Shown: positions 28,907-30,563 of the stretch, in pieces
How the letters are laid out: every line of letters begins with the position of its first letter
How positions within the stretch are numbered: position 1 is the stretch's first letter
Origin: Escherichia coli
GTDB lineage: Bacteria; Pseudomonadota; Gammaproteobacteria; Enterobacterales; Enterobacteriaceae
Direction: 5' to 3' (one strand)
NCBI RefSeq assembly: GCF_011045215.1
Contig: NZ_CP049202.1
DNA length: 64,000 bases
The notes under the pieces: model-generated
The model's input: the letters and a program-made list of their open reading frames with translations, nothing else
What the model was told of the DNA's origin: nothing
Databases searched by the model: none
Program-made: the position numbers and the translations under genes

Positions 28907-29032
28907 ATGAGTATTCCTTAGTGCGTTTAAAAAAGGAAAATATCAGTCTGTGGGCCGTGGATATATCACGCAGTGCCATTCTTAAAACCACAGCACAAAT
29001 AAGAGATGGAGGCTTTTAACAGGAAAACAGGA

Positions 29033-29395
29033 TTAACGTTCCTTTACTGAATGAGCATCATTTAATGCCTGAAGTTGTTTTTCGCGTATCTTATTGCGCT
29101 CGTTTTCTCTTACCCGTTTCACCTCTGCCATTTCGTTTCTTTCTCTACACGCTGATGCAAGCTCTTTTGCCTTACCAAGACTTAAAGGTTCAGGCTGATA
29201 ATCAGATGTGTCAGACTTAATAGCTTCCTTAAATGCTTCTGCTGCACAGGGGGTATCCTGTGTAATCTCTGTCAGTTGTTCTGGTGTTGCAGGTTGTTGC
29301 TCAAGGTAATCATTGTAAAAAAGACCACATATCAACATAGCCATAACACCAACAAATATAAAAGCCAGAACAGATTTTAAATATATCGACTTCAT
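29033..29395 (-). CDS. Hypothetical membrane-anchored protein with charged, probably coiled-coil C-terminal region (120 aa)
   Basis: N-terminal TM helix; ATG overlaps the stop of the upstream 82-aa ORF (ATGA). Confidence 0.5.
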   Translation of the reverse strand: MKSIYLKSVLAFIFVGVMAMLICGLFYNDYLEQQPATPEQLTEITQDTPCAAEAFKEAIKSDTSDYQPEPLSLGKAKELASACRERNEMAEVKRVRENERNKIREKQLQALNDAHSVKER

Positions 29396-29640
29396 TTCAT
29401 TTTAGCCTTATATAATTCCCATTGTCGGATATACTCCTCATACTGAGCCACTGGCACATTAACGATGACTCCGGCACACTCCAGTTTATTAACCGGTTCA
29501 GTAAATGCGCCTGTCGGTATATTCACTTCCAGAAATTTACAGTCATTTTTCCAGTATCTCCCGACATCCAGTTCATCCATCGTGAATGACTGACTGGCGA
29601 ACACAACAAGCGTAATAAAAGAAAAACATCCAGTAAGCAC
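29392..29640 (-). CDS. Hypothetical small exported protein (82 aa)
   Basis: N-terminal signal-like hydrophobic segment; operon-like arrangement with neighbours. Confidence 0.45.
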   Translation of the reverse strand: MLTGCFSFITLVVFASQSFTMDELDVGRYWKNDCKFLEVNIPTGAFTEPVNKLECAGVIVNVPVAQYEEYIRQWELYKAKMK

Positions 29641-29792
29641 ACTACAAACTAATATTTTTCATCTGCTGATCTGCAGACTGAATTTTTCAGGGATAACAAA
29701 CATAGCCAGTAAGTTAACAACACAGATAACCACAAGAAAGAGACACAGGAATATAAACCAGTCGATATTATTTCCTTCGAAGTAGTAAGCTC

Positions 29793-30011
29793 TCATTGCC
29801 CACCACCATTCAGTGTTTCCATCACATTGTTCAAAGGTTCATTTGTTTTAACTTCAATACACTCCCCTGTATTTCCAAAGCCCCTGCCTCCATGCGCTTC
29901 GATTGTCCGAAGAACCTGCACGCATACGTCCGTATTTGGCATGGGAGTAACATTCCAGCTTCCGCCACCGTTAATATTTTTTATCAGCACAAGAAAAATA
30001 AAGGTATGCAT
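29793..30011 (-). CDS. Hypothetical small Gly-rich protein (72 aa)
   Basis: ORF only; weak support. Confidence 0.3.
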   Translation of the reverse strand: MHTFIFLVLIKNINGGGSWNVTPMPNTDVCVQVLRTIEAHGGRGFGNTGECIEVKTNEPLNNVMETLNGGGQ

Positions 30012-30089
30012 TCTTTATTACCTCCAGTTAAATATTAATCACTGAATATTCATTCAGTTAACTATGAGGTCAGAAACACCGCAGATTTT

Positions 30090-30563
30090 TCATTCGGATT
30101 TACTCTCTTCAGAAAACTGCCGGATGGTATCCTGTTCACGCTGACGAGTGGCAGACTCCTGCATTGCATCCACTTTCTCCTGCCAGAGACGCCGGATATC
30201 CTTTTCATCCCGACCAGTCAGTTTTTTACCGGACAGCAGACGGTTAAGCAGTTCCTGTCTCGCATCCGGTATGTCTTCAGTCAGACGCATAAGCTGAAGC
30301 AGGCTCTGACGGCTGAGGACCATGAGTGATTCTGGCAGGAGGGTGAAGAAGCAAATAAAACAGCATACCGCACCACTGCAGGCAAGGACCGCAAACAGGA
30401 TTTTCAGATATATACCATCAACGCCGAACGCAGCAATAACACAGGGAATCCATGCAATACACGCACAAAACGCCAGGATGTTATATATTCGGTTATGTCT
30501 GCGATATATCTGTTGATGTTCATCCAGAATAAAATCGATTTTTTCAGCTTCTGATTTATGCAT
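30090..30563 (-). CDS. Hypothetical membrane protein (about 157 aa from MHKSEAEK; 2 TM then charged C-terminal region)
   Basis: Chosen start overlaps the traR stop; two hydrophobic helices. Confidence 0.5.
   Translation of the reverse strand: MHKSEAEKIDFILDEHQQIYRRHNRIYNILAFCACIAWIPCVIAAFGVDGIYLKILFAVLACSGAVCCFICFFTLLPESLMVLSRQSLLQLMRLTEDIPDARQELLNRLLSGKKLTGRDEKDIRRLWQEKVDAMQESATRQREQDTIRQFSEESKSE

Follow-up and report, generated by a model that had tools for sequence, protein, structure and literature searches.

Four small genes in the traR-traC interval of F-like plasmids: a probable old and dispensable accessory module of the tra operon

Accessory genes of the tra operon and the block between traR and traC

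The non-essential trb genes of plasmid F are located inside the tra operon and encode small products, most of which belong to the cell envelope. A block of four small open reading frames (ORF1 to ORF4) lies between traR and traC, at positions 28907-30563 of the window, by which we mean the whole stretch of 64,000 nucleotides (nt) of Escherichia coli contig NZ_CP049202.1 that was analyzed. The block resembles the trb genes of F in coding for small, apparently dispensable envelope proteins within the tra operon, although no sequence similarity was seen between ORF1-4 and TraP, TrbD, TrbG, TrbI, or TrbC of F. The exclusion genes traS and traT are found after traG, whereas the block is located between traR and traC. 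The small tra-operon products of pED208 encoded by orfX1-3, in the outer-membrane core gene cluster, are likewise uncharacterized (PMC10939261). In the Klebsiella plasmid pBIC1a, five "hypothetical" genes located between traV and traC are expressed at the level of the tra operon, with RNA sequencing values of 7-14, compared to 11 for traC and 22 for traV (PMC6286996).

The traR-traC interval of R100 (NR1) contains four hypothetical ORFs of 137, 157, 72, and 115 amino acids (aa), at the same position and on the same strand as the block and with the same overlap between traR and ORF1. blastp comparison of the 157-, 72-, and 115-aa products of R100 with ORF1, ORF2, and ORF4 revealed 90%, 97%, and 79% identity, respectively, with expectation values (E) of 1e-45 or better. 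It is close to certain that ORF1, ORF2, and ORF4 are these hypothetical ORFs of R100, which were already known and are not novel. The original prediction, made from the sequence of the window without database searches, found none of the products recognizable; they are the R100 hypothetical ORFs, and databases label two of the families yfiA and YfiC. R100 differs from the window by the presence of a second tandem ORF1 paralog (137 aa) and by the absence of the body of ORF3, which the window retains with a nonsense codon. Our literature search found no paper on yfiA/B/C with traR or traC, nor on genes located between traR and traC. The comparisons reported below are best explained if the block is an old, conserved, and dispensable accessory module that F-like plasmids carry in the traR-traC interval or, more broadly, in the interval from traV to traC.

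The traR and traC borders place the block in the tra operon, on the minus strand of the window, with the following features.

30556-30777, minus strand: traR, encoding a DksA-like zinc-finger protein of 73 aa (NCBIfam NF010268 at E 6.5e-54)
30090-30563, minus strand: ORF1 (yfiA-type), 157 aa, with an ATG that overlaps the traR stop codon
29793-30011, minus strand: ORF2, 72 aa, preceded by a strong GGAGG ribosome-binding site
29392-29796, minus strand: ORF3, 405 nt and 134 codons, a pseudogene in the window
29659-29661, minus strand: the in-frame TGA of ORF3, at codon 46
29033-29395, minus strand: ORF4 (yfiC-type), 120 aa, with an ATGA overlap with the ORF3 stop codon
28907-29032, minus strand: spacer of 126 nt located 5' of traC and carrying the traC ribosome-binding site
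26261-28906, minus strand: traC, encoding a VirB4-type ATPase, the downstream border of the block

The overlap between the traR stop codon and the ORF1 start codon was read from the sequence as ATGCATAA. The stop codon of ORF2 and the start codon of ORF3 share an ATGA at 29793-29796, and those of ORF3 and ORF4 share another at 29392-29395. These overlaps on the tra strand support the operon-like, coupled string of small envelope-protein genes that had been predicted. The coordinates and ATGCATAA agree with a minus-strand string of small ORFs whose first start overlaps the traR stop, and the predicted ATGA overlap into the last ORF is joined by a second one upstream. Among the four predicted ORFs, ORF1, ORF2, and ORF4 were confirmed at their predicted sizes; the 82-aa ORF is a fragment of a pseudogene. 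A search for promoters and terminators inside the block found no notable one, and no paralog of the block ORFs was found elsewhere in the window. The G+C content of the block is 0.415 versus 0.533 for traC, and TraC of the window shares 95.5-96% identity with its R100 and F counterparts. The 126-nt spacer is kept in F-like plasmids with or without the ORFs; pWI2, pF11A, and R100 match the window from ~29186-29403 into traC. Judged by the conservation of their homologs and by ratios of nonsynonymous to synonymous substitution rates (dN/dS) below 1, the ORFs are real genes.

Matches to the DNA of the block were found in 1310 PLSDB plasmid records and in 888 of the 5426 complete E. coli genomes, with a best match over the block of 96.1% in the plasmid and E. 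coli collections. The full four-gene version, defined in PLSDB as a record covering at least 80% of the 1657 nt, was present in 35 PLSDB records and in 35 complete E. coli genomes. TraC relatives were found in at least 5000 PLSDB records (3546 at ≥90% identity), and 96-97% of the plasmid records matching the ORF1-4 proteins are typed as conjugative. Plasmid p72 (NZ_CP023355) and the STEC1099 plasmid (CP101951) display 93-96% DNA identity to the window over the whole 1657 nt; unlike the window, these four-gene plasmids have an intact ORF3 of 134 aa, and p72 has an extra ORF1 paralog. Among E. coli-type versions of the block, that of the window is the fullest, with ORF3 now inactivated. The original prediction had envisaged that the ORFs might prove to be known tra accessory genes, conserved throughout the F-like plasmids. 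This holds in part, in that they are known and conserved, but not universal.

Age and deletion history of the block

The Klebsiella pKpQIL-like IncFIIK plasmid pIT-11C07 carries, in this order, traV, a 136-aa ORF, ORF2, a 103-aa ORF, ORF3, ORF4, a 132-aa ORF, and traC, and the order of homologs between traV and traC is similar in Pluralibacter pFB2.2. The IncFIIK cluster thus resembles the window in the presence and order of the ORF2, ORF3, and ORF4 homologs before traC, and differs from it by the absence of traR and of an ORF1 homolog and by the interleaved membrane ORFs of 136, 103, and 132 aa. Comparison of the window with pIT-11C07 gave the following values.

ORF2: 68% identity, dN/dS 0.18
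ORF3: 52% identity, dN/dS 0.28
ORF4: 39% identity, dN/dS 0.35
TraC: 67% identity, dN/dS 0.14
TraB: 72% identity, dN/dS 0.12
TraV: 57% identity, dN/dS not computable (synonymous substitution rate, dS, saturated)

Across all comparisons, the dN/dS of ORF2-4 ranged from 0.09 to 0.35. The conserved order, the Tra-like divergence, and the low dN/dS values indicate that ORF2-4 travelled with the transfer operon under purifying selection.

The gap between traR and traC of F is 159 nt long (L007:3583-3741) and contains a frameshifted ORF1 remnant of ~46 codons. It encodes MHKSVAEHSDLIPDEHEWIFRKQKSLYM, corresponding to residues 1-28 of an ORF1 allele, followed in a shifted frame by 18 more residues, APGNGALITGIPFMATAF. 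The residues of this remnant are 67-79% identical to known ORF1 alleles, and the allele type differs from that of the window. None of ORF2-4 is present in the gap. The ORF1 remnant indicates that F is a deletion derivative. In pWI2, the 5' end of ORF1 is joined to the 3' end of ORF4; pF11A has kept ORF1 and ORF2 only; and the deletion in R100 removed exactly the segment corresponding to window positions 29404-29770, the body of ORF3. That the block was deleted from F and, to intermediate extents, from pWI2, pF11A, and R100, leaving scars in all four plasmids, is close to certain. The description of the ORFs as inserted between traR and traC therefore had the direction of change wrong, since the order of ORF2-4 is shared with Klebsiella and Pluralibacter and the four plasmids carry these scars. 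The traR gene of F is likewise not immediately upstream of traC, as had been assumed, but is separated from it by the 159-nt gap with the decayed 5' remnant of ORF1.

Predicted products of the block and other sites in the operon

Comparison of translations revealed that codon 46 of ORF3 is TGA in the window and Gly in intact relatives. This TGA divides ORF3 into a 45-aa head (29659-29796) and an 82-aa tail with a GTG start (29392-29640). The 82-aa protein had been taken for a separate gene product; it represents the C-terminal portion of a 134-codon gene that relatives carry intact, and the 45-aa head had been overlooked in the original prediction. An identical 82-aa product is known from other assemblies as the 17-sequence cluster P0264, and other E. 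coli-type alleles of ORF3 contain frameshifts. ORF3 is 52-53% identical to 134-aa ORFs of Klebsiella and Pluralibacter, and tblastn detected it in 2592 PLSDB plasmid records, only ~34 of them at ≥80% identity. Its AlphaFold2 model, with a predicted local distance difference test score (pLDDT) of 83.6, comprises two membrane helices followed by a C-terminal domain of ~65 aa with an alpha, three-strand, alpha topology. Residues C86 and C107 are conserved in the alignment. In a Pluralibacter paralog, the ORF3 domain is found behind a single, plain N-terminal hydrophobic segment. Foldseek related ORF3 to an Escherichia albertii 'YdeB protein' (22% identity, E 2e-6). The tail was considered as a lipoprotein based on the motif LTGC, and this assignment was rejected since the Cys of LTGC/LIGC is absent from the Klebsiella and Raoultella homologs.

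ORF2 begins with a short, hydrophobic, signal-like N terminus ending in GGG, followed by a part of ~55 aa containing C30 and C51. Both cysteines are kept in all homologs, including a 47%-identical paralog. In addition to its near identity with the R100 protein (97%), ORF2 is 67-72% identical to the Klebsiella and Pluralibacter proteins, with dN/dS values of 0.09-0.23, and was detected by tblastn in 3602 PLSDB plasmid records. The paralog, a protein of 70 aa with both cysteines and 47% identity, is encoded in the leading region of the Klebsiella pneumoniae plasmid NZ_CP147639 (L011:3495-3707), flanked by a methyltransferase gene and ssb. ORF2 matches at <60% identity occur in ~100 plasmid records and may be of this leading-region kind.

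In the alignment, the N-terminal membrane anchor of ORF4 is followed by a conserved part with the invariant residues C50 and C83 and by a helical tail that is charged. It is 79-83% identical to the 115-aa ORF of R100 and 39-44% identical to a 129-aa ORF of Klebsiella; its relatives are labeled 'YfiC protein' in UniRef, and tblastn detected it in 3472 PLSDB plasmid records. Two assignments were rejected. Similarity to a superinfection-exclusion family (phrog_15667) reached only E 0.037 and was not reproduced with three ORF4 homologs, and Pfam and PADLOC returned nothing; a relationship to TraV received an hhalign probability of 11%. A database protein (P0174) contains the lipoprotein signal and N terminus of TraV fused to the C-terminal two thirds of ORF4. 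This fusion corresponds to a deletion of most of traV, traR, and ORF1-3 in what is a deletion-prone stretch, and P0174 thus provides no evidence of homology between ORF4 and TraV.

The hydrophobic N termini, the cysteine pairs, and the positive-inside rule suggest that the conserved parts of ORF2-4 face the periplasm. One disulfide bond may be present in each of ORF2, the C-terminal domain of ORF3, and ORF4.

The AlphaFold2 model of ORF1 is all helical (pLDDT 83.8), with a charged N terminus, a two-helix membrane hairpin (~residues 25-78), and a conserved helical C terminus for which the alignments define the motif VLSR..L..L....D.PD.R..L..RLLSGK.LTGRDE. By the positive-inside rule, both ends of ORF1 are predicted to be cytoplasmic, and the protein to reside in the inner membrane. 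The family, labeled yfiA in LC744463, was detected by tblastn in 3080 PLSDB plasmid records, and a profile search among 1.84 billion representative proteins retrieved only 99 relatives. E. coli-type alleles share 80-98% identity over residues 1-20 and 79-129, whereas the membrane core (residues 21-78) occurs in at least four or five unrelated-looking types. The cores of the window type and of the R100 137-aa type display 28% identity and a dS of 1.3, compared to 0.26-0.56 for the flanks, indicating old alleles with recombined flanks. Among close relatives, the dN/dS of ORF1 is 0.5-1.5, driven by the membrane hairpin. Both core types are present in tandem in R100 (L008:2699-3112) and p72 (L001:4650-5063), where the paralog has 137 aa. 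The first tandem copy ends with QRKHYA, the C terminus of TraR, indicating that the duplicated unit consisted of the 3' end of traR plus ORF1. The LC744463 allele (L003) is a recombinant of these two types. It is conceivable, although improbable, that the core forms an allele-specific recognition surface pairing with an equally polymorphic membrane protein of the plasmid or the host; if true, this would be an immunity-, exclusion-, or compatibility-like function never described for F-like plasmids.

The order traV-traR-ORF1 was found in divergent F-like operons (L012 and L016), and the traR-ORF1 pair occurs in Salmonella pSLT-type plasmids, with 48% identity for ORF1. A relative of ORF1 also heads an IncX-like VirB-type operon (L013:5001-5492), after a NusG-like gene and a gene for a 74-aa cysteine-free protein. 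Besides the IncX-like locus, ORF1-family loci located outside F-type tra operons were observed at L023:4001-4444, L024:4001-4510, and L022:4001-4495; one of these adjoins hicAB (IncI2), and two directly follow ProQ/FinO-family genes (IncI1 and IncF). ORF1 thus belongs to a family of plasmid proteins whose association with traR or with a type IV secretion system (T4SS) operon is frequent but not constant. An obligate TraR-ORF1 pair was rejected because ORF1 relatives occur without TraR in IncX-like, IncI1, and IncI2 contexts.

Searches of NCBIfam, Pfam, PADLOC, and PHROGs returned no significant match for the ORFs or for their Klebsiella and Pluralibacter homologs. Sequence searches of the PDB with the block ORFs gave nothing below E 0.3, and Foldseek searches with the ORF models gave no match below E 0.8 in the PDB and only uncharacterized Enterobacterales proteins in AFDB50. 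No function was assigned by the family libraries, the fold searches, or the papers found in the literature search, in which such genes appear only as the "hypothetical" genes of pBIC1a and as orfX1-3 of pED208.

Further features were observed elsewhere in the operon of the window. The traP gene (31975-32565, minus strand) contains an in-frame TAG at codon 113 (32227-32229) and is otherwise full-length, with 76% identity to TraP of F; this is the second nonsense mutation in a non-essential gene of this tra operon. A segment of ~1.6 kb (24643-26260) with a G+C content of 0.34-0.38 separates the end of traC from the F-matching part of trbI, which corresponds to residues 15-128 of F TrbI only. This segment carries ORFs for 91 aa (24771-25046) and 312 aa (24940-25878) on the plus strand and an ORF for a 159-aa membrane protein (25822-26301, minus strand) that overlaps the end of traC; none of the three has an NCBIfam match. 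A homolog (57% identity) of the 101-aa hypothetical protein encoded between traU and trbC of R100 is located at 22367-22645 on the minus strand. The surrounding spacer (22333-22688) has a G+C content of 0.35 and is another site within the tra operon occupied by a small accessory ORF.

Proposed role and rival explanations

The identity and the deletion history of the block are close to certain. As to its role, our preferred explanation is that ORF1-4 are non-essential accessory envelope proteins, co-expressed with the tra genes and translationally coupled, that support or modulate either the T4SS or the envelope of the donor; we give this statement as a whole a probability of roughly 0.55, whereas its functional part, the support of the T4SS or the donor envelope, is held more tentatively, at somewhat less than even odds. 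The long transcript of the tra operon would include the block. Translation would be coupled from traR to ORF1, would resume at a fresh ribosome-binding site for ORF2, and would continue through the ATGA overlaps into ORF3 and then ORF4. Together, the four products would assist, without being essential, either the apparatus for type IV secretion and pilus formation or the donor envelope in which it is embedded, a role comparable to that of the dispensable trb genes of F. Their contribution would be important in certain hosts, Klebsiella among them, whereas E. coli lineages would readily lose them piecemeal.

The distribution of the block is not that of an essential component: F lacks ORF2-4 and retains ORF1 only as a remnant, and most of the block is absent from pWI2 and pF11A. 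Since F is transfer-proficient, the block appears to be dispensable. The nonsense codon of ORF3 in the window and the frameshifts in other E. coli-type alleles also point to dispensability.

Several observations weigh against a role in support of the secretion apparatus. The family, PDB, and fold searches gave nothing usable. ORF2 has a paralog in a plasmid leading region. Relatives of ORF1 are also found outside T4SS operons, adjoining hicAB on IncI2 and directly 3' of a ProQ/FinO-family gene on IncI1 and in one IncF plasmid. These relatives and the leading-region paralog of ORF2 indicate that at least ORF1 and ORF2 may have roles for the plasmid that are not tied to the secretion machinery. 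The signal-like segment of ORF2 is short and without a basic residue, and the export of ORF2-4 and the formation of their disulfide bonds are predicted from sequence only. Finally, frequent loss fits cargo and an accessory role equally.

Such cargo, rather than forming part of the transfer apparatus, would ride on tra transcription as small envelope proteins made only with the pilus. It would protect the donor or the new transconjugant, for instance from pilus-specific phages, from too many matings, or from attack by competitors, or would add to exclusion. Leading-region genes are expressed early in recipients, and the 47%-identical ORF2 paralog is located in that region, between a methyltransferase gene and ssb. 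The low G+C content of the block (0.415 versus 0.533 in traC), its mosaic content with repeated gain, loss, and duplication, the Foldseek link between the ORF3 fold and the E. albertii 'YdeB protein', and the presence of ORF1 relatives in varied contexts on IncI1, IncI2, and IncX-like plasmids are all in keeping with cargo. However, the order of ORF2-4 is kept and their divergence is in step with that of TraC, TraB, and TraV, unlike that of freely exchanged cargo. PADLOC found nothing, and the single weak PHROG match of ORF4 to 'superinfection exclusion' (E 0.037) was not reproduced by three homologs. We consider this explanation unlikely.

Less probable still, ORF1 could be a membrane-bound partner of TraR, holding or tuning this RNA polymerase-binding protein at the inner membrane, with ORF2-4 being functionally separate. 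The envelope state would then be linked to the transcriptional effects of TraR, and ORF1 would be translated by coupling to traR. The overlap of the ORF1 start with the traR stop, the recurrence of the traR-ORF1 pair in divergent F-like operons and in pSLT-type plasmids of Salmonella (48% identity), the predicted cytoplasmic location of both conserved parts of ORF1, and the duplication of a unit comprising the 3' end of traR and ORF1 in R100 and p72 are consistent with a partnership. This is offset by the ORF1 relatives found without TraR (in the IncX-like VirB operon, next to IncI2 hicAB, and with the IncI1/IncF ProQ/FinO-family genes) and by F, which has kept traR and lost ORF1. Finally, that the ORFs are decaying remnants without present function is highly improbable: the inactivated ORF3 of the window, the frameshifts in other alleles, the nonsense codon of traP in the same operon, the deletion of part or all of the block in many lineages, and the dN/dS of 0.5-1.5 for ORF1 among close relatives would fit decay, but ORF2-4 display dN/dS values of 0.09-0.35 over long distances and intact frames in thousands of plasmids, and the cysteine pairs and the cytoplasmic motif of ORF1 are strictly conserved.

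The discovery of an accessory module, as we favor it, is modest, as databases have listed the products as hypothetical proteins ever since the sequencing of R100. Its main consequence is that the reference frame needs correcting. The textbook plasmid F is the exception, having deleted a block of small envelope-protein genes that is kept, whole or in part, by R100, by many F-like plasmids of E. coli and Salmonella, and by nearly all Klebsiella IncFIIK resistance plasmids. Modeling F-type conjugation from F alone misses up to four conserved products, or six in Klebsiella.

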